From assembly GCA_016186145.1 (NCBI GenBank), contig JACPMF010000010.1:8053-72052 (forward strand): 64,000 nt of DNA. Reading direction: 5' to 3'. A model generated the notes under the pieces. The model was not told where the DNA came from and did not search any database. It worked only from the letters and a program-made list of their open reading frames with translations. Each line of letters opens with the position of its first letter. Within the stretch, counting starts at the first letter, position 1. Below, piece after piece: positions 50,487 through 64,000 of the stretch. The stretch comes from Candidatus Sungiibacteriota bacterium (GTDB lineage: Bacteria; Patescibacteriota; Minisyncoccia; Sungbacterales; SURF-37). The position numbers were made by a program, and so were the translations under genes.

Positions 50487-51596
50487 ATGGAGCTCTTCTT
50501 GCTCCTCGTCATTCCTCTGCTTATCGCCTTGGGGGCGTTTTTGTGGAGTACTTTGAAGCGGGATCGCCGCTACATTATCAGTCTCAAAGAATTTCTGGTT
50601 ATGGTTGGGGTTGTAGTGTTTCTCATGCTCGTCGGTTACTTTATCTCCCGCTATGCGGCAACCTACGACAACGAGCTCTGGAACGGCCGCGTCGTCAATA
50701 AGCAACAAGAACGAGTGTCATGCGAACATTCCTATCCTTGCAATCCGCACCCATGCATGTGCGACGATAAAGGCAACTGCAGCACCTGCTGGGATACCTG
50801 CTATGAACATTCCTATGACTGGGATTGGGCGCTTTACACTTCAAACAGCGAACGGATCGAAATTAACCGAATTGACCGACAAGGAGTGAATGAACCCCCG
50901 CGATATACGAAAGCAAAGAGCGGCGACCCGACGGCGGTAATTCACGGCTATACGAACTACATAAAAGCAAATCCATGGTCAATCATGCGAAGAAGCGGCG
51001 CGATGGAGGAATTCAAAAACCTCATGCCGTCCTACCCTCTTAACATATACGACTACCATTATGTTGATCGCTTCATCGCGCTCGGTGTTACAATCCCTCC
51101 GGACGCTTCCCCGCTTTGGAACCGCGACCTCATGGAAGTAAACGCTGATCTTGGAAAGAAAAAACAGGTCAACATCATTTTTGTCGTTGTACCGACCGCT
51201 GACTCTTCTTATCTTCACGCCCTCGAAGAAGGATGGCTTGGAGGAAAAAAGAACGACCTCGTAGTCATCTTCGGTGTCGCCCGCTATCCGGAAGTCAGCT
51301 GGGTGCGAGTGATGTCGTGGACGCAGGCAGAAGAAGTCAAAATCGGCCTGCGTGATTCCCTCCAAGAGATCGGCTCCCTCGAAAGGCACGAGGAAATAAT
51401 TACCAAAACAAAAGAGCTGGTAGACAAACTCTTTGTCAGACGGCCCATGGCCGACTTCGAATACCTTATGGCAGGCGTCCGCCCGCCGCCATGGACACTG
51501 ATTACTCTTCTTATCGTCGGAATAGGAGTTTCTGTGGGGCTCGCCGTCTTTTTCTATAGGGAAGACCCGTTTGAAACTGGCAGAAAACACTGGTAA
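50487..51596 (+). CDS. Membrane protein with Cys/His-rich exported domain
   Basis: Two N-terminal TMs, SCEHSYPC..C.C....C..C..CYEH, WLGGKKNDLVV, C-terminal TM. Confidence 0.8.
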   Translation: MELFLLLVIPLLIALGAFLWSTLKRDRRYIISLKEFLVMVGVVVFLMLVGYFISRYAATYDNELWNGRVVNKQQERVSCEHSYPCNPHPCMCDDKGNCSTCWDTCYEHSYDWDWALYTSNSERIEINRIDRQGVNEPPRYTKAKSGDPTAVIHGYTNYIKANPWSIMRRSGAMEEFKNLMPSYPLNIYDYHYVDRFIALGVTIPPDASPLWNRDLMEVNADLGKKKQVNIIFVVVPTADSSYLHALEEGWLGGKKNDLVVIFGVARYPEVSWVRVMSWTQAEEVKIGLRDSLQEIGSLERHEEIITKTKELVDKLFVRRPMADFEYLMAGVRPPPWTLITLLIVGIGVSVGLAVFFYREDPFETGRKHW

Positions 51597-51639
51597 CGCG
51601 ATAAACTGCAAAAACCCCGAACGGGAAAGGAGAGGTCAC

Positions 51640-52209
51640 ATGAGTAAAGGGCTCGTAATCACCGTTGCTGTTCTTGCGGTATTGGGTGTATTGGTTCTCG
51701 CCGTCGTCGGTTCGCTTATCGGCTTCAATAACACCGCTGTTCGCATGGAAGCGGGCGTTAAGGCGCAGTACGAACAGAACCGAAATAACTACGACAACTA
51801 CTGGAAGAAGCTGAAAGAAATCGCACAGGTTCCCGCAATGTATGTTGACGATATGAAAAAGCTTTGGGACGGCGTCATGACGGGCCGTTACGGAAAAGAA
51901 GGTTCCCGGGCAATGTTCCAGTGGATCCAGGAACGGAACCCCAAGCTTGACCCCTCGCTTTACCGAAAAATCCAGGATGTCGTCGAAGCCGGCCGCAATA
52001 GCTTCGAGGCAGATCAAAAAATGCTGATCGACAAAAAACGCGAATACTTCGACACCTACCTCAAGACTTTCCCGAATAGCGCGCTTGCCGGACTCCTCGG
52101 CTTTCCGAAAATCAACCCTGCAGACTACGCAATTGTCACTTCGGAAGAGACGGAAGAAGTGTTCAAAAGCAAAAAGTCGAAACCGCTGAAACTCCGAGAC
52201 GAAAACTAA
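51640..52209 (+). CDS. LemA-like protein
   Basis: N-terminal TM, helical body, KTFPNSALAGLLGF tail. Confidence 0.7.
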   Translation: MSKGLVITVAVLAVLGVLVLAVVGSLIGFNNTAVRMEAGVKAQYEQNRNNYDNYWKKLKEIAQVPAMYVDDMKKLWDGVMTGRYGKEGSRAMFQWIQERNPKLDPSLYRKIQDVVEAGRNSFEADQKMLIDKKREYFDTYLKTFPNSALAGLLGFPKINPADYAIVTSEETEEVFKSKKSKPLKLRDEN

Positions 52210-52225
52210 AAGAGCTTAAAAATCG

Positions 52226-52282
52226 AGATGCCGCATGCGCGGCATTTTTTCTTATATAAAAAGCGGCCTTCAGGCCGCTTTC
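52226..52282. terminator. Tandem terminators between convergent genes
   Basis: atgccgc-atgc-gcggcatttttt and aaagcggcc-ttca-ggccgcttt. Confidence 0.75.
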
Positions 52283-53122
52283 TTAATTTTCCCCGACGCG
52301 CATTTTCATTTTGACAGGATGAGCGCCTCGAACCAAAGAACTGGTAGAAATATAATGGACCCCGGTTTCAGCAATCAAGCGAAGATCCTTATCGCCTATG
52401 CCGGATGCTTCGAAAATAATTTTGTCACCGTACTTTTGTACCGCTTCAGCCATCATTTTCAAACTCATATTGTCGAGAAGCACGTGGCTGACCCTGCCGT
52501 CGGCTACGACAACCTCAAGCTCCTCAAAAGTTTCCACTTCGATCTCGACGCTGACCAAATGCGACTTTGCCAGGAAAGCGCGGTCAATCGCTTTTTTAAT
52601 CCAGCCGTCGATCTGAATATCTTCTTTCTTGATAAGAATCCCATCATATCTTCCAAACCGGTGATTGGTTCCGCCGCCGACCCTTACAGCATACTTTTCA
52701 AACACGCGAAGGCCGGGCGTAGTTTTTCTCGTATCAAGAAGTTTCGCAGGCAAACCCTTGATTTCATCGACCGCTTTTCGCGTATGCGCGGCAATTCCGG
52801 AAAGGTGCTGGAGAAGATTCAAAACCGTACGGATACCGTGGCGAAGTGTTTCAACCTCAATGTCAATTCTGGCAACGATATTTCCTGAAGAGAAAGCCCT
52901 TCCTTCTTCAAGTAAAAAGATCGCTCGCGGCTTCTGAACGCCGTCGGGAGTAATAAGCGAAAAGGCTGGAACAATCAATTTCCCTCCGCACATAACTCCC
53001 GGTTCTTCCGCAATGATTCTCGCGCTAACGAAACGCAGCGAATCGTTCGACTCAACCGCAACAGGTCCAATATCTTCCGCCAAAAATTCTTCAAGCTTTC
53101 GACGAACGAAAATCTCGTTCAT
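52283..53122 (-). CDS. nadC: Nicotinate-nucleotide pyrophosphorylase (quinolinate phosphoribosyltransferase)
   Basis: LSGIA, LDTRKTTPGLR..EKYAV..GGG.NHR, EIEVE, LLDNM, EASG. Confidence 0.96.
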   Translation of the reverse strand: MNEIFVRRKLEEFLAEDIGPVAVESNDSLRFVSARIIAEEPGVMCGGKLIVPAFSLITPDGVQKPRAIFLLEEGRAFSSGNIVARIDIEVETLRHGIRTVLNLLQHLSGIAAHTRKAVDEIKGLPAKLLDTRKTTPGLRVFEKYAVRVGGGTNHRFGRYDGILIKKEDIQIDGWIKKAIDRAFLAKSHLVSVEIEVETFEELEVVVADGRVSHVLLDNMSLKMMAEAVQKYGDKIIFEASGIGDKDLRLIAETGVHYISTSSLVRGAHPVKMKMRVGEN

Positions 53123-53137
53123 TTCAGATCCCCTTTC

Positions 53138-54238
53138 TTAGACGATCCGAAGCATTCGCTCAATCGGAACGCGCGCCCTTTTCGCAAGCTCTACATCAAC
53201 GGTAATTTCGTGCTTGAGATCGCGAAGCGACTCATAAACCTTCCGAAGCGTATTCTGTTTCATGAAGGGACAGATCGCTTCACGGCTTGCCGGAATAAAA
53301 GTTTTTCCCGGAGCGGCTTTTGACATCGGATAAATATTACCGACTTCGGTAGCAACAATAATCTTTTCGGCATCCGTCTCCCGTGCAAACTTAATCATTC
53401 CCTGCGTTGATAAAAACCGCATCCGGCCTTCGGAACTGTTCATCAACGGCACGAGACACGCTGACTGGCAGCCGCACTCCATGTGCCCTGCAACAACCGC
53501 ATCGGGATGCTTGGCGAGCTCCTCCTGCAAATGCTGCGGACGAATCCGTTCGTGAACGTGGCACGCGCCCATCATCAACCATAACCGGTCAACCGACTGC
53601 CCCATCCCCAAAAGCATCTTTGCCGCGTAAAGTCCGAGAAAAACATCCGGGCCAAAAAGCACGGGGCCGTCGTGATTTTCAAACACGTATTTGATCACCT
53701 GCGGGGAATTTGCCGAAGCGCAGCAATAATCGCTTTCCGCCTTTACGTCAACATACGTATTCACGTAACTTACCACCACCCCATCGGGATGTTCTTTCTT
53801 CCAAGCGCGGATTTTCCCCGCATCCGCGTGCGAAGCTAAAGAACAAAGCGCTCTCAAATCAGGGGCAAGCACTTTCTGGTGCGGCTTTTTCATAACCGCA
53901 AGAATCTGGTTCATAAAAAGAACCGCCGCCTCAACCAAAACGTCCGCATCCGGCGCAACGCCCTTTTGCGCGAGAAATAAAGAATCGCCGACAGCATCCG
54001 CCACATCCTGAACGTCAGGCGGCATGTAATTATGCGCAAGCACCAAAGCGTTCCGTTCCCGCTTCAAACGCACGATTTCTTCGCAGAACCACTGCCGCTC
54101 TTCAGAAGAAATATTTTCAGGGAATGCGTCAGCAGGAACTTCCGGAATTTCATTTGGCGGGCCGAGGTCAGTTGTATCGATAGCCGCGATTGCTTCTCGC
54201 GCAGGGAGAATGTCTCCGGAAAGAACCTCACGAACCAT
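53138..54238 (-). CDS. nadA: Quinolinate synthase
   Basis: LAHNY, GDS, CSLA, YVNT, ACHVH, TEVG, CPFMK (three Fe-S cysteines). Confidence 0.96.
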   Translation of the reverse strand: MVREVLSGDILPAREAIAAIDTTDLGPPNEIPEVPADAFPENISSEERQWFCEEIVRLKRERNALVLAHNYMPPDVQDVADAVGDSLFLAQKGVAPDADVLVEAAVLFMNQILAVMKKPHQKVLAPDLRALCSLASHADAGKIRAWKKEHPDGVVVSYVNTYVDVKAESDYCCASANSPQVIKYVFENHDGPVLFGPDVFLGLYAAKMLLGMGQSVDRLWLMMGACHVHERIRPQHLQEELAKHPDAVVAGHMECGCQSACLVPLMNSSEGRMRFLSTQGMIKFARETDAEKIIVATEVGNIYPMSKAAPGKTFIPASREAICPFMKQNTLRKVYESLRDLKHEITVDVELAKRARVPIERMLRIV

Positions 54239-55637
54239 TACGAACCCCCCTTTCTTTCAAAAAACTTTCTACAAGTTCGATATCCTCGATAGCATTACCC
54301 ATACAACTTGATGCGCCGGGAGAAGGCGTTACATTGCAAATTACCGGATTATCCGAATCACCGACAAACTTACCGAGACCCATTTCCAGCTTCCTGGTCT
54401 TGAGGTTCAAAAGCTGGGGCCTGATACCGCCCATTCCCCTTCCGAAGTGCAGGTCGCGAAACCGCATCGTCGGAATGACCTTCTGCGCTCCCCACTTGAG
54501 AAAAAACCATTTTCCAAGAATTGGAAAGTTATATAAAATGTTCTTCAGCTCAAAACGGGACAGCCTCGGATCGCCGAGGACTCGCAAAAGCGTCAAAAAA
54601 TAATCCCACGGCCGGAGCATTCCCATTTTCATAAAATCCACGATGGTCGAAAAATGATGGCGTTCAAAGAACGGAAGCACAATCGCAGTCGGCCCGATCC
54701 GCGTTTCATTTTCATTATAGACCGCGCGATCCGCATGAGGCGCTGCAAAAGGAATGTTTTCGTCCTGGACCGTATAAACCTTTCCGTTCAGAAACTTCTC
54801 CGTCGTGTAGTGGAAACTCCCCGCGACAGGCAGAATCGCGTACTCTTCCGCAGGAAGACCGTTTTCCGCATGGCGGACGCCGAGACGCTTCGCAAACATC
54901 AAACTATAAGGCCCGGCAGAAATCACAAGGGTTTTTGCCCGGAATACGCCTCGGTTAGTCTTTACAAGGTAAGTATTGTCTGCATCGCGCTCAATGCCAA
55001 AAACCTTAGTGCGAAAGAACGCATGAAATTCCTTACCATTTGCTTTCGCCTCTTTATCGCCTTCCCGAACAAACGATTCGGCAAGCTGGGCGTAATCTAC
55101 CGCATGCCCCTTGCTATACAGCGCATAAAGATGTTTCTTCTCATCTTCATTTCTTCCTTCAACGACTTTCGGCTCAATCGCCGCAATCTCCTGCCATCCA
55201 ATAAGTTCAAGATCAGGATAATGGGGTTTCAGCATCTTGAATCTCATCCGCAGAAGGTTTGCCTCCTCCACATTCGTGCTAATGACCATAGCCGGCAACT
55301 CAACATACGCGCCGTGCCCGCGCTCCTTCAGGTAAGCGACAAGATACTTATAAAACGCATGCATCCGCAAGGCCTTCGGAAGAGAAAAGTTTGTTTCCTT
55401 GTCTCCGCGATGGGCGGTTTCGGCATTCGCAAGCACATTCGAATTAACCTGTGCTACGGCATGATGCTTTTCAAGGAGTGCGGCGCTCCGTATTTCAAAC
55501 GAAAGAGCCGCTCGGAAATAAACTGCCGTCCCCACCACTCCGCCGCCGATAATCACGAGGTCATAAGCATCGCCATCGCTTCTCATGCCGATAGCTCCTT
55601 TCGCGCTATTGATAAGCGTAAAAGCGGCGTTTTTCAT
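54228..55637 (-). CDS. FAD-dependent oxidoreductase, malate:quinone oxidoreductase (Helicobacter-type)/L2HGDH family
   Basis: IIGGGVVG, NSNVLANAETAHRGDKETN, PFAAPHAD, GGIRPQL, NVTPSPGASSC. Confidence 0.85.
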   Translation of the reverse strand: MKNAAFTLINSAKGAIGMRSDGDAYDLVIIGGGVVGTAVYFRAALSFEIRSAALLEKHHAVAQVNSNVLANAETAHRGDKETNFSLPKALRMHAFYKYLVAYLKERGHGAYVELPAMVISTNVEEANLLRMRFKMLKPHYPDLELIGWQEIAAIEPKVVEGRNEDEKKHLYALYSKGHAVDYAQLAESFVREGDKEAKANGKEFHAFFRTKVFGIERDADNTYLVKTNRGVFRAKTLVISAGPYSLMFAKRLGVRHAENGLPAEEYAILPVAGSFHYTTEKFLNGKVYTVQDENIPFAAPHADRAVYNENETRIGPTAIVLPFFERHHFSTIVDFMKMGMLRPWDYFLTLLRVLGDPRLSRFELKNILYNFPILGKWFFLKWGAQKVIPTMRFRDLHFGRGMGGIRPQLLNLKTRKLEMGLGKFVGDSDNPVICNVTPSPGASSCMGNAIEDIELVESFLKERGVRNGS

Positions 55638-55672
55638 GATCCCTCCCCCTTCTTCAAATTTCAAGGAACTAC

Positions 55673-55727
55673 TTAGTGTACTTTTTACACTATACGCATG
55701 GTAACAAAACCGCTTTCGGTTTGTCAA
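55673..55727 (-). promoter_or_regulatory. Sigma70 promoter with NrtR-like operator
   Basis: Minus strand TTGACA-N18-TACCAT; palindrome TAGTGTA-N5-TACACTA (GT-N7-AC core) at 55673-55693. Confidence 0.7.
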
Positions 55728-55757: not shown

Positions 55758-56630
55758 ATGTCGAAAACACCATTCAAAAAAATTGCTTTTTATTACCGGC
55801 AAGACATACGGAATGCCGCGTTTTGGACAAAACGTCTTACGCAATGGATAACGCGCCATTATCCAAAAACGGCAATTCTCCCCCCGAACGCGGTTCCGAA
55901 AAGACGAAAAGAGGCGCCCGGTGTGCTTTTCGTTCTCGGCGGCGATGGTACCATCCTTGAGGCCGCACAAAAGTTTCTCAAATGGAACCCTTTAATCATG
56001 GGGCTTAATCTCGGGCATGTCGGCTTTCTTGCGTCAGTGCGAAACCAAAATCATTTTATTAACGGAGTTAGCAAAGTATTTTCGAAAAAGTACAGAGTTC
56101 TCCCCAGGATGCTGATACGCGGAACCCTTTTTCGGAAAGGCAAAAAAATATTCTCGCAAGACGCCCTGAACGAAGTAACGGTGCAAAATCTCTCGGGCCT
56201 TGTTGACATTACGGTGTTTGTCGACGGCCATCCGGTACAAAAAATCCACGGAAGCGGGGTTCTCGCCTCCACCGCAACAGGATCAACCGCTTACAATATG
56301 TCCGCCCATGGCCCGATTGTAATGCCGGACATCAAATGCTTTGTCATTACCGAACTTTTCGACCACAACATACCAACACCAAGCTTGGTAATCAAGCGAA
56401 ACCGGACAATCACCATACAAATCGGGGACTTCCGAAAGCGCGGACAGTTTTCCATTAAAAAGACCGGGGAGCCCGCAGATGCCGTTTTGTTCGTTGGGTC
56501 TTGGGAAATTATCGCCCTCCAAAAAGGGGATATTATTCGCATCGAAAAATCAAGCCGCCTTATCAGGTTTATAGAGCTCGAAAAAAATTATTTCTTCAAA
56601 AGTCTGCAGGAAAAATTCGCCTTTCGGTAA
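55758..56630 (+). CDS. ppnK: NAD kinase
   Basis: LGGDGTIL, NLGHVGFL, ALNE, TATGSTAYNMSAHGP. Confidence 0.96.
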   Translation: MSKTPFKKIAFYYRQDIRNAAFWTKRLTQWITRHYPKTAILPPNAVPKRRKEAPGVLFVLGGDGTILEAAQKFLKWNPLIMGLNLGHVGFLASVRNQNHFINGVSKVFSKKYRVLPRMLIRGTLFRKGKKIFSQDALNEVTVQNLSGLVDITVFVDGHPVQKIHGSGVLASTATGSTAYNMSAHGPIVMPDIKCFVITELFDHNIPTPSLVIKRNRTITIQIGDFRKRGQFSIKKTGEPADAVLFVGSWEIIALQKGDIIRIEKSSRLIRFIELEKNYFFKSLQEKFAFR

Positions 56631-56779: not shown

Positions 56780-57442
56780 TTATCGTATTGTTGCGCACCT
56801 TGAAGACGGCTGCGGTCTTTGTTGCACGCGAGGAATTCTCATAACCATGGAATCGTACGGCTCAAAAGAAATTTCTGCTCCGGCCCTCATCATTTCCATC
56901 ACCGCGCGGCGACTGTCCCCTTCGTTACGTTCAACGCCGCGGCAGCAATTTATCAAAACCCTGGTTTTGTAACCGATCAAACACGCATCAAGAACCGTCG
57001 CCTTTACGCAATAATCGGTGGCAAGACCGGCAACATACAAAAGCTCGACACCGCGGAAAGGAAGCGTTTGACGAAGCGTCATTGAAAACTGATCACGGCC
57101 ATCGAATGCAGAATAACCGTCTACTTCGCGCGACAACCCGGATACGGCGCAGCCTTTAGAAAAAATACGAAGCTCCTCGGGAAGATACAATTCAGGATAA
57201 AATCGAGCGCCCTCGGTATTTTGAATGCAGTGCGCCGGCCACTGGCCCCCGAACTCCACAAAATGTCGCGAATTCCTTGGATGCCAGTCTCTTGAGGCAC
57301 AGATAAACCACTTCTCATGTATGGCTCGAGCAACCACGCAATTTAACGGCTCAATAACCCTGTCGCCATCCGGCACGGGAAGCGCGCCGCCAGGGCAAAA
57401 ATCATTCTGCACATCCACGATCAAAAGCGCGGTTTTTGCCAT
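56780..57442 (-). CDS. pncA: Nicotinamidase/pyrazinamidase
   Basis: VDVQNDFCPGGAL, DWH, WPAHC, YSAF, GLATDYCV. Confidence 0.96.
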   Translation of the reverse strand: MAKTALLIVDVQNDFCPGGALPVPDGDRVIEPLNCVVARAIHEKWFICASRDWHPRNSRHFVEFGGQWPAHCIQNTEGARFYPELYLPEELRIFSKGCAVSGLSREVDGYSAFDGRDQFSMTLRQTLPFRGVELLYVAGLATDYCVKATVLDACLIGYKTRVLINCCRGVERNEGDSRRAVMEMMRAGAEISFEPYDSMVMRIPRVQQRPQPSSRCATIR

Positions 57443-58637: not shown

Positions 58638-61600
58638 TTACCTCACCAAATAATCAACGTCGCGAAGGGGTTGGGCCGGCATTTCATAAGCCCCCCTCAT
58701 CGTACCCATACCGCCGCCCCCGCCCCCCGGACCCCCGCTTTCCCCATCCTCATATTGACTATTGTTCCTGCTTGCAGCAACCCTAACCATCATAAGCTTG
58801 TTCATTCCTCCTCCCCGTACCGCCTTAAGGCCTGTTTTTGGCTCCAAAGAAGAAATCGCATAAGCATTCATAAGCCTCGTAATAGATTCCCGATCAAGCG
58901 GGGTATAAACCGGCTCAAGGAAAATTTGCGGCTTGCCGTCGGCTTTTCGATGAACAATTTTTGTAAGACGCCTTGCAACGGCAGCCCGGATAAACGCAAA
59001 CGTATGACTTTGAAACACCTTAAGCCGCTCTTCCGTATCCGCCGCGTTTTCTAACTCCTGATTTACTTCCTCCGGCAATTTATCAAGATCCACCAACAAA
59101 CAATTTTTTGTGTACGCATCGGCAACATACGCCGCAAGCACATAGTCCCCGTTTTCATAATGCTGGCACGACCTCGCGCTGCCGGGATAAGTCCCGACAG
59201 TAAGCAAAGCCATCGGATTGTCCGTAAAGATGAGCGCAAGACGCTCTTTTCCAATCGGATGCGCCTCTTCTTTAATGACTTCTTCAATTTTTTTGAGGGT
59301 TCCAAGAATCGCATCGCTGCCGGCAAAATGTTTCTTCAGATCATCAAGTGCGCCGCTCACCGTTTCTTTCTTCTTCCCCGGGGTGATGCGATTAAATGCG
59401 ATCGCCTGCGGTGTCAGTTGGGCAAGCTGCAAAAAGGTTCGCCCCGCTTTCAAATCTTTCAGCGCACCGTACCATTGATTGCGTTTAATGCCTTCCTGGC
59501 TGCCGAAAAACTCCTCCCGCAACACCCTCAACTCTTCCGAAACCAGAAGCGTGTCTAAAGAATCTTGTATGCTTTTCCCAACATCGCTCAATTCTTCAGG
59601 ACTTGCCGCAGGTGATAACCGGTACCGCCCAAGAAATCCGGTTACCTTATCGGCAAGTTCGATTGGTTTTAACTTTGCAAGCCGCGAAAATTCCTTTTCT
59701 GAAACCCCCTCACGCCGCATTTCATCAATGCGAACCTCAATCTCTCCGCGCGTTTCCGTGCCTCGCAACCCCAGCTTTTGCAATTCAACTCTTTTTGCCG
59801 CTTCTGCCTCTTGCCATTTTTTTAAGTCACCGGGAAGCCGTTCAAGGAGTGCCGCATCTTCCTCCAAACGCAACAACCGATCTATTGTCGTAATGCGGCT
59901 GTTCAACGATTCAATATCGGCAGCGACTGCTACCGCGATATCGGACGGCTTTCCTGCGTTCCGCACAAACTCACGGGCTAAACGAAAAATACGCACACCC
60001 TCCTCGTTCCCCCCTTCCTCGGCAAGATCATGACAAACCATATGCCGAAGCGTATCTTGAATGCGCTTCGGTTTGTCGCTTGGCAACATGCCGACAATAA
60101 CCTCCCCCATATCTACAAAATCGTCCTCCGCGTATGCGGCAATTTGTTCCGGAGTCATGCCGCTTAGTTGTTCTTTTACCACCGGATCTTTAGTAGAATA
60201 CCGCCACTGCTTCCATTCTATGAAATCGGGCGGATCCATATGCGCAAGCATCTCTCCGGTCAGCATCAATGCTTTATATTGCGGGCCTTCTTTATAACTC
60301 ATGCCGCTCCGCGCAAGCTCTGCCGCAAAAATAAATACCGGCTCCGGGTCTTCCCACGCCCTAAAAAGGGTTTGAATTTTATCAGTACTTAAATCTCCTC
60401 TTCCCGTCAGCGCATGAAGGCCCCGTACAATCACCGTATCTATCTCCGCCTCGAGAACCGAAGGAGCTTTGGCCTCTTTTAAGAGGGCAGTCATATCGAG
60501 CAGTGGAAAATCGGCCCCCAGCTGGTTTTGATTTTCCTGCAAAATCGAAATAAAACGGATTTTCTTCAGCAAACGGTTTGCAAGCAAAAGATGCTCTTTG
60601 GTTGGCTGTTTCGTGGCAATGATTTTGTCGGTAATCAAGTCAACAATTTCTCGATCATACCCGAGCATGTTCGAAATATCATACAAAAACGCCTCCTGAA
60701 GTCTTCCCGACTTAACGGCGTTTATTGCCGCCTCCCACTGCTGAATTCGTTTCGCATCATCCCCAAATATGCGCCGGAGCGTAAGAAAAAATTCCGGCGG
60801 CAACCCTTTAGCGAGCTCTTGATTCGTTTCCACCACGCCCTTGCCGTCAAAACGTAATTTATCTGCCTCGCTGTAACACACGCCTCGTAACTTCTCCCGA
60901 ACCGTCGTGCTCGCAATCTTTTCAACGCGCCAAAGAGCCGCATAATCTTCCCAACGAATCTGACCGGAACGCAAGCAGGCGTCTCGATTAATAAAATCGA
61001 CGTAGGGGAAAAAACCTTTGTTGTTTTCCAAATTTTTCAAGCATGCCTTTTTCAAACGCGGATCAACTTCAGGATTTGCCATCAGTTCAAAAACAGCCCT
61101 TCCGGCATCCTCACCGCGCAGCCGAAAAAGCGTATGGAGCAGCGCCATGCCTGAAGGACTTAAAATAGATTTCCGGGACCCTCTCTCCTTTTTAAGAGCC
61201 GCACTTTCCTGCTTTATAAATGCCGAAAATTCGTATGCAATGGAAGAATCGTTCCCGGAACTGCCAAGTTTTACAAACTGATCAGCGACAACCCTCCTTG
61301 ATGCCTTGTCCTGTTCTTTAAGCAAACTCTCCTGCAAAAATTTTTTTGCCGCTGCGTATTCTCCCTGCAACTCAATGCCACCCGACTGGTGGCTCAAAGC
61401 AATCTCTCCAAGATACTCATAAGCATTTCGCTTTTCAGCGCGCGTAGTCTCTGCCGAAGCGAATATCTCACTGATTCGCGACTGAATAATGCGTCTTTTT
61501 ATAGAGGCATCGGATTCCGGGGTTTCTCCAACTGTTTCTTTAAAGATGCGGCCTGCGTGCTGGAAAAACAATCGAATATCTTCACCAAAAAGATCTCTTA

Positions 61601-62657
61601 AGTGTGAATGACCGTCCCAGAAGGAAAAAAGCTGTTTCTGCGCCTCAAGCGGCAGTGAGACATCGGTAAGTTTCGGATCACTCAATATTGCGTGGCCGCG
61701 CGCAAGATATGCCTCGCCGTATTCATTTTTAATGAACTCGCTGACACCCCCGGCTTCTTGAATTTTTCGTGTTATCTCCGCAAGATGCGGATAACGCTTT
61801 TCGATAAATCCGAAAAGATCCTTCTTAACCGCAAGATTACAAAAGGCAGAATTAATGCCTCTGCCGGCAAATCGGTCTGCTACCCAAACACGCCGCCTTC
61901 GCGGATATCCTTCTTCTTTTTTCAGATCACCCGCTTCATCTCCGCCGGAGACGGCAATGCGAAGCTGCTTTTCTTTTGCGTTGGCCTCTTGAAGGGCGAG
62001 CTCAGAATCGTCCACGGAAACGCTAAAACGCTCTCCAAGATCTGCAAGCCGCAAAGCTGTTGCGAGATCGCGGGTTCTTGGATACAAATAACCGGGCATG
62101 CGTCCTCGAATAAGCTCTCCGTTTTGGTAACGTTCCAGCTGATATGCTTCTTCGGCCTGACGCCTGATAGATTCTGCCCTTCCGGACAAAAACCTTCCGG
62201 CTGTGCGAACCACGGAACTGATTTTTTCTTTCTTTTCTTTCGTAACCGGCTTTACAAGCTTTTTTTGCACCTCCCAATAGCGATCCCACAAAATCAACTC
62301 CGGCTCGTCGTCAAAAAGCGCCATTTCGTAAAGATCGTCGGAAGAAGCATGCGTAATCTGAATTGCTTTGTCTTCTATCTTATGTTTTTTGATAAAGCCG
62401 CATATCGTCTCATATGCGTCTGGTGAAAGCTGCTTCTCCGCATCGACGAGATTTTCAAAATATTGAATTTCGATATCCCGCGACCGGCTAGATCTCTCGG
62501 TAACAAAGAAAAAATCAACATCGCGCGCAAGGCGCATGTCTTTCCCTGTTTCTAAGGCATACAAAGCCGACCCCTTCACCACTACCCGATCTATACCGGG
62601 AAACTTCTCGTAGCCCTCTCTGCCCTCAACCGGGGCCGGACGCTCAAATTCTTTCAT
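58638..62657 (-). CDS. Large hypothetical protein (~1339 aa) with possible N-terminal nucleotidyltransferase motif
   Basis: Uninterrupted ORF; VVKGS...RDVDF; long helical body; C-terminal SCQHY. Confidence 0.8.
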   Translation of the reverse strand: MKEFERPAPVEGREGYEKFPGIDRVVVKGSALYALETGKDMRLARDVDFFFVTERSSRSRDIEIQYFENLVDAEKQLSPDAYETICGFIKKHKIEDKAIQITHASSDDLYEMALFDDEPELILWDRYWEVQKKLVKPVTKEKKEKISSVVRTAGRFLSGRAESIRRQAEEAYQLERYQNGELIRGRMPGYLYPRTRDLATALRLADLGERFSVSVDDSELALQEANAKEKQLRIAVSGGDEAGDLKKEEGYPRRRRVWVADRFAGRGINSAFCNLAVKKDLFGFIEKRYPHLAEITRKIQEAGGVSEFIKNEYGEAYLARGHAILSDPKLTDVSLPLEAQKQLFSFWDGHSHLRDLFGEDIRLFFQHAGRIFKETVGETPESDASIKRRIIQSRISEIFASAETTRAEKRNAYEYLGEIALSHQSGGIELQGEYAAAKKFLQESLLKEQDKASRRVVADQFVKLGSSGNDSSIAYEFSAFIKQESAALKKERGSRKSILSPSGMALLHTLFRLRGEDAGRAVFELMANPEVDPRLKKACLKNLENNKGFFPYVDFINRDACLRSGQIRWEDYAALWRVEKIASTTVREKLRGVCYSEADKLRFDGKGVVETNQELAKGLPPEFFLTLRRIFGDDAKRIQQWEAAINAVKSGRLQEAFLYDISNMLGYDREIVDLITDKIIATKQPTKEHLLLANRLLKKIRFISILQENQNQLGADFPLLDMTALLKEAKAPSVLEAEIDTVIVRGLHALTGRGDLSTDKIQTLFRAWEDPEPVFIFAAELARSGMSYKEGPQYKALMLTGEMLAHMDPPDFIEWKQWRYSTKDPVVKEQLSGMTPEQIAAYAEDDFVDMGEVIVGMLPSDKPKRIQDTLRHMVCHDLAEEGGNEEGVRIFRLAREFVRNAGKPSDIAVAVAADIESLNSRITTIDRLLRLEEDAALLERLPGDLKKWQEAEAAKRVELQKLGLRGTETRGEIEVRIDEMRREGVSEKEFSRLAKLKPIELADKVTGFLGRYRLSPAASPEELSDVGKSIQDSLDTLLVSEELRVLREEFFGSQEGIKRNQWYGALKDLKAGRTFLQLAQLTPQAIAFNRITPGKKKETVSGALDDLKKHFAGSDAILGTLKKIEEVIKEEAHPIGKERLALIFTDNPMALLTVGTYPGSARSCQHYENGDYVLAAYVADAYTKNCLLVDLDKLPEEVNQELENAADTEERLKVFQSHTFAFIRAAVARRLTKIVHRKADGKPQIFLEPVYTPLDRESITRLMNAYAISSLEPKTGLKAVRGGGMNKLMMVRVAASRNNSQYEDGESGGPGGGGGGMGTMRGAYEMPAQPLRDVDYLVR

Positions 62658-62689
62658 CTTTGAAATAATAACAAACTGTTGAGTATGAT

Positions 62690-64000
62690 TCAATCCGAGA
62701 GTTCATCCAACCACATTTTTGCCTCGGCGTCGGAAGGCATGCGCCAGTCGCCTCTCGGAGAAAGCGCTACCGAGCCCACTTTCGGCCCGTCCGGCATGAC
62801 CGAACGTTTCCACTGGTTTTTGAAAAAACGCTCCAAAAAAAGGCGGAGCCATTTTTTAATCTCGCGCGGCGCGTACTTTTTTGAAAATGCCCGTTCTGCA
62901 AGGAATAAAATCTTTTTCGGAGAAGACCCCCAACGAAGGAAATGATACAAAAAGAAATCGTGGAGAACATAAGGACCGATAATCTCTTCGGTCTTGTGCG
63001 TGATCCCCCCTTTTTTTCCGCGAACCAATTCCGGAGAAATGGGGGTTTCCAAAATATCTTTCAGCGCCTTTCGTGCGTTACCCTCAACGTGCGTATCCAA
63101 AACCCATTGCACCAAATACCGAACCAGAGTTTTGGGAACTCCGGCATTGACGTTGTAATGCGAAAGATGGTCGCCGGAAAACGTACTCCAGCCAAGAGCC
63201 AATTCGGAAAGATCGCCCGTGCCGACAACAATGGCATGAAACTGATTCGCTTTATTCATAAGCACCATTGTCCGGTAACGCGCCTGCGCGTTCTCAAAAA
63301 CCAAATCCTGCTTTTGCGGACTATGCTGAATGTCTTTGAAATGCGCGAGTACGCCTTTGGCAATATCAATTTCTTCAACACCTATGCCGAACGCCTTGCA
63401 CAAACGATATGCATTTGATTTTGTGCGGCGACTTGTTGCGAACCCCGGCATGGTGTATGCATGAATATTCCGTAAAGGGTACTTCAGGAGCGAAAAAGTT
63501 TTTACGGAAACCAAAAGCGCGAGTGTTGAATCAAGACCGCCGGATACTCCGATAACAACATCTTTAATACGCGTCTGTTCAAGGCGTTTCGCAAGCCCCG
63601 CAATTTGTATTGAAAAAATCTCTTCCGACCGCTTGCCGCGAAGCATGGGGTCCTCCGGTACAAAAGGAAACGGCGAGATGCGCCGAAAAAAACCGGGTGT
63701 TCCTCCATCCGCAACAAACACTTCAAGAAATCGGAAATCAAACGAATCTTTTTCTTCTTCGCTTGTCTTTTCGGCGAAACTCGTCGTTTTTTCCCGATCA
63801 TGCAAAAGGTGTTCAATATCTATATCCGCAAAAATCAGCCCCCCGTTACGCTGAAACCGCTTCGACTCGGCAAGCAAAGAACCGTTTTCGGCAACTATAC
63901 TATGTCCGCCAAAAACCAAGTCTGTCGTTGATTCATGGACGCCGGATGAGGCGTAGACGTAGGCCGAAATGGTCCGCGCCGACTGCTGCAAAACAAGCTC
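62690..64000 (-). CDS. nadE: Glutamine-dependent NAD+ synthetase (5' partial)
   Basis: ESTTDLVFGG, GVSGGLDST, ENAQAR, GTGDLSE, PISPEL, SPRGDWRMPSD. Confidence 0.97.
   Translation of the reverse strand, partial: ELVLQQSARTISAYVYASSGVHESTTDLVFGGHSIVAENGSLLAESKRFQRNGGLIFADIDIEHLLHDREKTTSFAEKTSEEEKDSFDFRFLEVFVADGGTPGFFRRISPFPFVPEDPMLRGKRSEEIFSIQIAGLAKRLEQTRIKDVVIGVSGGLDSTLALLVSVKTFSLLKYPLRNIHAYTMPGFATSRRTKSNAYRLCKAFGIGVEEIDIAKGVLAHFKDIQHSPQKQDLVFENAQARYRTMVLMNKANQFHAIVVGTGDLSELALGWSTFSGDHLSHYNVNAGVPKTLVRYLVQWVLDTHVEGNARKALKDILETPISPELVRGKKGGITHKTEEIIGPYVLHDFFLYHFLRWGSSPKKILFLAERAFSKKYAPREIKKWLRLFLERFFKNQWKRSVMPDGPKVGSVALSPRGDWRMPSDAEAKMWLDELSD

Follow-up and report, generated by a model that had tools for sequence, protein, structure and literature searches.

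A malate:quinone oxidoreductase-like flavoprotein as a probable NadB substitute in a nadA-nadC operon of a Candidatus Sungiibacteriota bacterium

The stretch of DNA analysed here (64,000 nucleotides (nt) of contig JACPMF010000010.1 from a Candidatus Sungiibacteriota bacterium; hereafter the window) contains an operon for de novo NAD synthesis in which a gene for a flavin adenine dinucleotide (FAD) oxidoreductase of the malate:quinone oxidoreductase (Mqo) type occupies the position of nadB, immediately upstream of nadA and nadC. The initial annotation of the window took this flavoprotein for a non-orthologous replacement of NadB, and the genomic context, namely the absence of nadB and nadX, conserved linkage and co-regulation, supports that view, with the qualification that enzymes of the same group also occur in genomes without nadA. 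We conclude that the flavoprotein is probably a NadB substitute that feeds NadA, by one or the other of two substrate routes. Some small-genome bacteria without nadB keep an enzyme of a malate-oxidizing type in the nadB position of an NAD operon, and a complete, regulated de novo route would exist in a lineage of ~1-Mb genomes, presumably CPR-like by size and gene content, in which nadA is rare (17 of 401 genomes in each of two samples).

An earlier study lists 34 predicted NAD prototrophs that have nadA and nadC and lack NadB and NadB2, including 17 Helicobacter pylori and 8 M. luteus strains, and concludes that an iminoaspartate-forming enzyme yet to be named must exist (PMC6593275). For this published missing step the operon offers a concrete and cheaply testable candidate family. 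No proposal of an Mqo-type enzyme as a NadB substitute turned up in the full-text literature searched, which holds few subscription journals and leaves the supplements of PMC6593275 and PMC2330246 out of scope; the enzyme family and the pathway are already known, and it is their coupling that appears to be new.

Gene order and the absence of nadB and nadX

The operon comprises the following features (aa, amino acids):

54228..55637, minus strand: Mqo-like FAD oxidoreductase, 469 aa, of the Campylobacter/apicomplexan-type group, candidate NadB substitute (residues H76/E81, Y288, H301/D303 and R406)
53138..54238, minus strand: nadA, quinolinate synthase, 366 aa; its first 11 nt overlap the 3' end of the flavoprotein gene
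52283..53122, minus strand: nadC, quinolinate phosphoribosyltransferase, 279 aa, after a 15-nt gap
55698..55727, minus strand: promoter-like TTGACA-18-TACCAT with a TG extension, the best site of the region (10/12)
55674..55692, no strand: 19-bp palindrome TAGTGT-N7-ACACTA, predicted NrtR operator, just downstream of the -10 box
52225..52281, no strand: two terminator-like hairpins 3' of nadC, shared with the convergent gene (hairpin count 7 against 6.1 in shuffles, not above chance alone)

The open reading frame (ORF) coordinates agree with the initial annotation, which had described the 469-aa flavoprotein as overlapping nadA by 11 nt with nadC 15 nt further on. The flavoprotein frame opens at TTG 55727, the 469 aa being counted from an ATG, and an alternative ATG start is possible at residue 18. 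NadA and NadC score above their curated NCBIfam cut-offs (298.8 against 294 and 211.3 against 198.4, respectively), and the cluster cysteines of NadA (C132, C226 and C323) are invariant among 14 aligned sequences. The NadA clade also has a conserved N-terminal extension of ~50 aa (residues 1-50; window 53138-54238) and, following its HxEC motif, additional cysteines (CGCxSxC, residues 252-260). Promoter-like sites in the region overall are at chance level (5 found, 3.6 expected); the same arrangement of promoter and palindrome precedes related operons, and a single promoter may serve all three genes.

The absence of nadB and nadX that had been noted for the window holds for the whole source genome, G000 (980 kb, 24 contigs, 99.07% complete): profile searches of the assembly with TIGR00551 (nadB) and PF01958 (nadX) gave no match, and an E. 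coli NadB query was blank as well. The proposed co-location of the Mqo-like gene with nadA and nadC in other nadB-less genomes is also conserved. The order is represented by 62 genomes, of which 11 carry the flavoprotein gene and 7 carry nadA, all 7 lying within those 11, and nadA is found in none of the 51 genomes without the flavoprotein gene. No genome of the order has a nadB match over the cut-off (there are three weak matches of 46-55 residues, all in nadA-less genomes), and nadX is absent from the seven with nadA. In six of these seven (G000, G456, G427, which is a single contig, G402, G403 and G404) the flavoprotein gene lies directly upstream of nadA; nadC is third in five of the six operons, and in G402 nadA runs off the contig.

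Two wider samples of 401 genomes each gave a consistent picture. In the class sample nadA is present in 17 genomes, the flavoprotein gene in 18 and both in 6; 13 of the nadA genomes belong to other orders, and among these nadB is present in 4, all without the flavoprotein gene, and nadX in none. An nrtR-mqo-nadA arrangement occurs in G778, a member of another order, and in G571 the flavoprotein gene and nadA are cut at facing contig ends. In the phylum sample nadA is likewise present in 17 genomes; of 16 other nadA genomes, 14 match nadB (10 over the cut-off), G399 has nadX and G245 has neither, and the flavoprotein gene is found in none. Across both samples, nadA and a nadB match occur together in 18 genomes (14 of the phylum and 4 of the class), all of which lack the flavoprotein gene, and five of the six genomes that have nadA and nadC without nadB or nadX carry the operon, G245 being the exception. 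The flavoprotein gene immediately adjoins nadA in seven genomes of four families, and the linkage extends over two clades of NadA (31-34% and 65-74% to the NadA of the window). Fisher values for the association (6.7e-7 in the order and 3.1e-5 in the class) are overstated because related genomes are not independent, and we do not rely on them. Among 80 metagenomic loci of the flavoprotein gene, many of them short, nadA was found at none, nadC at one (L025, where the two genes overlap) and nadK at one (L042, opposite the flavoprotein gene). A pattern scan of genome contigs with a single flavoprotein sequence gave one locus only, which is unlinked.

A predicted NrtR regulon

The operator of the NrtR repressor has been described as a palindrome with a GT-N7-AC core near NAD genes (PMC2330246). 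The initial annotation had pointed to such a core in the promoter region; the bare core is at chance level (3 matches in 200 bases), and what stands is the full palindrome TAGTGT-N7-ACACTA, of which there are exactly two sites in the 980-kb genome (0.07 expected; 0 for the reversed pattern). One site precedes this operon and the other precedes nadD-nrtR-nadE, and behind the second lies a gene encoding a NUDIX domain with an NrtR winged helix. The operator (at most one mismatch, at most 600 nt upstream) is present at all seven other operon copies and at none of 15 copies of the flavoprotein gene in nadA-less genomes (one with 255 nt of upstream sequence only), nor is it found at the flavoprotein copies of G407 or L025. 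The pattern was derived from the operon copies, so the positive counts lean on that derivation; the genome-wide count and the negatives do not. In G427 and G402 there is one operator for the flavoprotein gene and a separate one for nadA, which argues that the flavoprotein gene belongs to the regulon independently of nadA. In G427, the gene preceding the flavoprotein copy was considered as NrtR-like and rejected; it encodes a plain NUDIX protein. Linkage with nadA and nadC, exclusivity with other iminoaspartate suppliers and co-regulation, as expected of a NadB-like enzyme, are thus all found for the flavoprotein, with G407 and G245 as exceptions.

The same operator also precedes genes for an ADP-ribosylglycohydrolase, NUDIX proteins, a PurA-like protein and others, so membership of the regulon alone is no proof of a role in NAD synthesis. 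Islands with the operator or NAD genes further cover a pair of VWA-like and PurA-like genes, a pyruvate-kinase-like gene and ADP-ribosylglycohydrolase/NUDIX genes (the VWA and kinase labels were assigned by eye); these loci (L185:13106-15442; L025:1-1874; L197:4317-6406; L126:833,2070; L154:6157-7215) are predicted to form a larger ADP-ribose-responsive regulon.

Family, fold and substrate of the flavoprotein

The flavoprotein passes the Pfam models DAO and Mqo. It is over the cut-off of no NCBIfam model (best 68.7 against 499; no model of this subgroup comes near its cut-off), it is unmatched by both TIGR00551 and Asp_DH_C/PF01958, and its sequence is not similar to that of E. coli NadB (best E 1.1). 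In the Atlas it neighbours DAO+Mqo clusters from Cyanobacteriota, Campylobacterota, Apicomplexa and archaea (feature score 0.98, TM 0.86-0.89). The nearest folds to its predicted structure (predicted local distance difference test (pLDDT) 86.5) are L-2-hydroxyglutarate dehydrogenase (L2HGDH; 8W75/8W78; Z 37.0, root-mean-square deviation (rmsd) 2.7, 389 residues aligned) and then mycobacterial Mqo (Z 35.6, rmsd 2.7, 405 aligned), after which glycine oxidase (ThiO) ranks with Z 31.8, rmsd 3.0 and 339 aligned. In Plasmodium MQO the residues H123/E128, Y330, H343/D345 and R446 have been singled out (PMC11097338), and C. jejuni MQO has been linked to the apicomplexan MQOs (PMC9908594). The corresponding set in the flavoprotein is H76/E81, Y288, H301/D303 and R406, the comparison with characterized MQOs being one of motif spacing rather than direct alignment of their sequences, and the same residues line up with the motifs of L2HGDH (PMC10726252). 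The earlier assignment to the Mqo type rather than to NadB is consistent with this catalytic set, with the Mqo-like Atlas and fold neighbours and with the lack of similarity to NadB.

Position 72 is Ala, in place of Ser, in all nine copies from nadA genomes and Ser in 64 of 65 metagenomic copies; in dmL2HGDH the S88A substitution lowers kcat/KM from 5.97e4 to 2.13e3 (PMC10726252). We considered Ala72 as an amine-oxidase signature and found it not to be diagnostic, given that E. coli Mqo shares the Asn-Ala-Gly motif with DadA and that Ala occurs in 25 of 113 family representatives. A single clade of the 13 Ala72 copies, a group defined after the first tree, was likewise rejected (p-AU, approximately unbiased test, 1.3e-5). 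The trees were quickly built ones that drew on 107 and 36 of the 201 rows in the alignment. Elsewhere in the family, P0231 is a 1130-aa protein whose Mqo-like domain spans 647-1110 and whose N-terminal part has no assignment, and a plasmid search returned five haloarchaeal homologues.

Some relatives carry an additional module. Six database homologues (P0029, P0057, P0088, P0128, P0133 and P0230) have as their N-terminus a fused hydrophobic domain of ~140 aa that contains a CxxC motif; the domain is also encoded upstream of the flavoprotein gene in G456 and, frameshifted, in G403 (coordinates at L146:9360-9758; L196:2555-2989; L238:1498-1893; L154:7221-7635; L042:497-856, the L042 fusion carrying an internal stop). 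A search of 70 genomes detected it in 4, each of which has both nadA and the flavoprotein gene, three rows of the search model having come from such loci; it is absent from the 15 genomes with the flavoprotein gene only, from G000 and from four other operon genomes. A single-sequence model of the domain reaches pLDDT 60 with a best fold match of Z 7.9 or less, and its Atlas lead, DUF1360, is weak (0.86 only). The domain is a candidate membrane anchor or electron exit that is dispensable in G000.

Searches of G000 with E. coli queries and two Pfam models found no homologue of fumarase, Mdh, malic enzyme, Pck, Ppc or aspartase, none of PurA/PurB, ArgH, class I aminotransferase or DcuA, and none of the bo3 (Cyo) and bd (Cyd) oxidases or MenA; IscS, IscU, SufA and TpiA were found. 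With no malate source, oxaloacetate sink or respiratory chain seen, NadA is the only visible customer of the flavoprotein, and since aspartate must be at hand for translation, these absences favour direct oxidation of aspartate. The fold family also includes amine oxidases, which we count for aspartate over malate. We therefore slightly favour direct oxidation of L-aspartate to iminoaspartate over a route from malate by way of oxaloacetate and ammonia, and hold it tentatively, at somewhat below an even chance. By this route L-aspartate, the amino analogue of L-malate, would be oxidized in an Mqo-type site, with His76 acting as the base, Tyr288/His301 and Arg406 holding the two carboxylates and hydride passing to FAD; NadA would condense the labile imine with dihydroxyacetone phosphate, and NadC, NadD, NadE and NadK would complete the pathway. 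NrtR would repress the operon until ADP-ribose signals the loss of NAD, and electrons would leave through an acceptor, in some relatives perhaps by way of the fused or adjacent CxxC membrane domain.

Several observations weigh against a dedicated NadB substitute that oxidizes aspartate. G407 has the flavoprotein gene and nadA apart, with no operator at the former; 12 of the 18 carriers of the flavoprotein gene in the class sample have no nadA; the closed genome G245 has nadA-nadC without nadB, nadX or the flavoprotein gene; and no nadC was seen in G407, G778, G571 or G402, which have nadA and the flavoprotein gene (87-94% complete). Hydroxy-acid enzymes outrank glycine oxidase among the closest folds, and all the residues essential in Plasmodium MQO are kept with the same short-range spacing. 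No residue diagnostic of aspartate oxidation was found in the flavoprotein copies: Ala72, the sole active-site change common to the nine copies from nadA genomes, is present in E. coli Mqo too, and Glu73 was rejected as an amino-group-binding signature, since Gln occurs in most operon copies and Glu is confined to one subclade. A single dedicated clade of these nine copies was rejected as well (AU p 5e-54). In G000 no electron acceptor for the flavoprotein is visible, malate could be supplied by a host, and the metabolic absences rest on the queries and models named above.

Alternatively, the flavoprotein may be an ordinary acceptor-dependent malate dehydrogenase recruited as an indirect NadB substitute. 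Oxaloacetate and ammonia form an imine that reportedly feeds NadA in vitro, and imported malate might be oxidized to oxaloacetate and converted to iminoaspartate with ammonia, in solution or on NadA. The intact MQO active site speaks for such a route, as does recruitment from several family branches, which suggests that an unmodified Mqo suffices; the linkage and operator evidence fits it equally well, and two glutamate dehydrogenases in G000 are a possible source of ammonia. The reverse reaction, hydrolysis of iminoaspartate to oxaloacetate and ammonia, has been described (bioRxiv 10.1101/2022.10.19.512830); the equilibrium favours hydrolysis (same source), so that high ammonium would presumably be needed. 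The text of PMC9981529 and PMC7855459 available to us contains no forward use of oxaloacetate and ammonia with NadA. G000 also yielded neither a source of malate nor a transporter homologue (DcuA being the one query) nor a quinone/oxidase system. We regard the malate route as somewhat less likely than direct oxidation of aspartate, and as a serious contender.

Less probable still is that the flavoprotein merely travels with the NrtR regulon and serves a different function, for instance oxidizing malate or some other 2-hydroxy acid independently of NAD during NAD shortage, NadA being fed otherwise or the pathway decaying. The genes for ADP-ribosylglycohydrolase, NUDIX and PurA-like proteins behind the same operator would fit this, as would sugar catabolism within NrtR regulons (PMC2330246), the class carriers without nadA and G245, which manages without any of the three suppliers. 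So would seven class genomes that keep an orphan nadA without nadB, nadX, the flavoprotein gene or nadC (the nadA match of G644 being a 104-aa frame). Direct adjacency to nadA in seven genomes of four families, the overlap between the two reading frames, the mutually exclusive occurrence with nadB and the lack of the operator at the 15 copies in nadA-less genomes all argue against a passenger. A nadB or nadX lying in unassembled sequence, or too divergent to detect, is very improbable: G000 is split over 24 contigs, but both genes are blank in all seven nadA genomes of the order, including the single-contig G427, and in other parts of the phylum these models do detect nadB (14 of 16 genomes tested) and nadX (1 of 4).

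A NadB substitute feeding NadA is thus the reading we retain. Repeated recruitment from several branches suggests that ordinary members of the group already possess the useful activity, be it a general side activity on aspartate or the malate route. H. pylori presumably has an Mqo of the same type. It is conceivable, if rather doubtful, that Mqo-group enzymes oxidizing L-aspartate constitute a third entry to aspartate-derived NAD synthesis, recruited into nad operons several times, in some cases with the CxxC module replacing quinone as the exit for electrons, and that they are the 'missing NadB' of H. pylori and other bacteria with nadA and nadC and without nadB.

Four side observations touch these subjects. 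The loci of the seven orphan nadA genes (L159, L162, L198-L202) include several still behind an NrtR-type operator. In G245, nadC-nadA (L127:6646-8638, single contig) also lies behind the same operator and presents a further unexplained iminoaspartate gap. The two glutamate dehydrogenase homologues of G000 are at L229:2934-4211 and L230:4059-5396, in a genome in which no class I aminotransferase turned up. A gene of the isocitrate lyase/phosphoenolpyruvate (PEP)-mutase family is divergent from that of an unassigned 468-aa FAD protein (L231:2095-4688, G000 contig C18), and its product might touch oxaloacetate.

Neighbouring genes and known systems

Further NAD genes lie near the operon:

55758..56630, plus strand: NAD kinase, divergent from the operon; also near it in G456, G427, G402, G403, G404 and G778
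56780..57442, minus strand: nicotinamidase gene pncA; no pncB found in the genome
62690..64000, minus strand: 3' part of glutamine-dependent nadE; nrtR, nadD and the second operator lie just past the window edge

In G000, nadD, nrtR and the glutamine-dependent nadE sit ~7-10 kb beyond the operon. A search of the genome gave no match to pncB, which leaves de novo synthesis as the one complete NAD route visible there. Directly downstream of nadE on the same strand is a 1351-aa ORF of unassigned family (window 58638-62693), and two plus-strand genes, for a 369-aa membrane protein and a 189-aa protein, neither of which matches a Pfam or NCBIfam model, converge on nadC (window 50487-52209).

Among known enzymes, the MQO of C. 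jejuni and P. falciparum (the Campylobacter/Helicobacter/apicomplexan type) shares with the flavoprotein the DAO/Mqo fold, a length of ~450 aa, the catalytic set and its spacing. Unlike that type, the flavoprotein is encoded by an NAD operon that has an NrtR-type site, in a genome where tricarboxylic acid cycle enzymes and a respiratory chain were not found; it also has Ala72/Glu73 for Ser/Gln and a shorter C-terminus, and some relatives have the CxxC membrane domain. Equivalents of H92, Y289, H302 and R393 of L2HGDH are present, whereas identity to L2HGDH and ThiO is ~18-24%, the Ser88 equivalent is Ala and the LhgO score is 57 bits against a cut-off of 299.

NadB, of the succinate dehydrogenase/fumarate reductase flavoprotein family, is also an FAD enzyme with the same operon slot and the same proposed product, but it has no sequence similarity to the flavoprotein, which TIGR00551 leaves unmatched and whose fold neighbours are of the DAO family. 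NadX, the NAD(P)-dependent aspartate dehydrogenase whose gene adjoins nadA in G399, is a known non-orthologous replacement of NadB; it differs in family and cofactor, and PF01958 is absent from G000. No Mqo-like member turned up in the text consulted on the NrtR regulon, the word 'oxidoreductase' being absent from the main text (PMC2330246). The two hallmarks of that regulon, the GT-N7-AC palindrome at NAD-gene promoters and the nrtR gene, are both present in G000.

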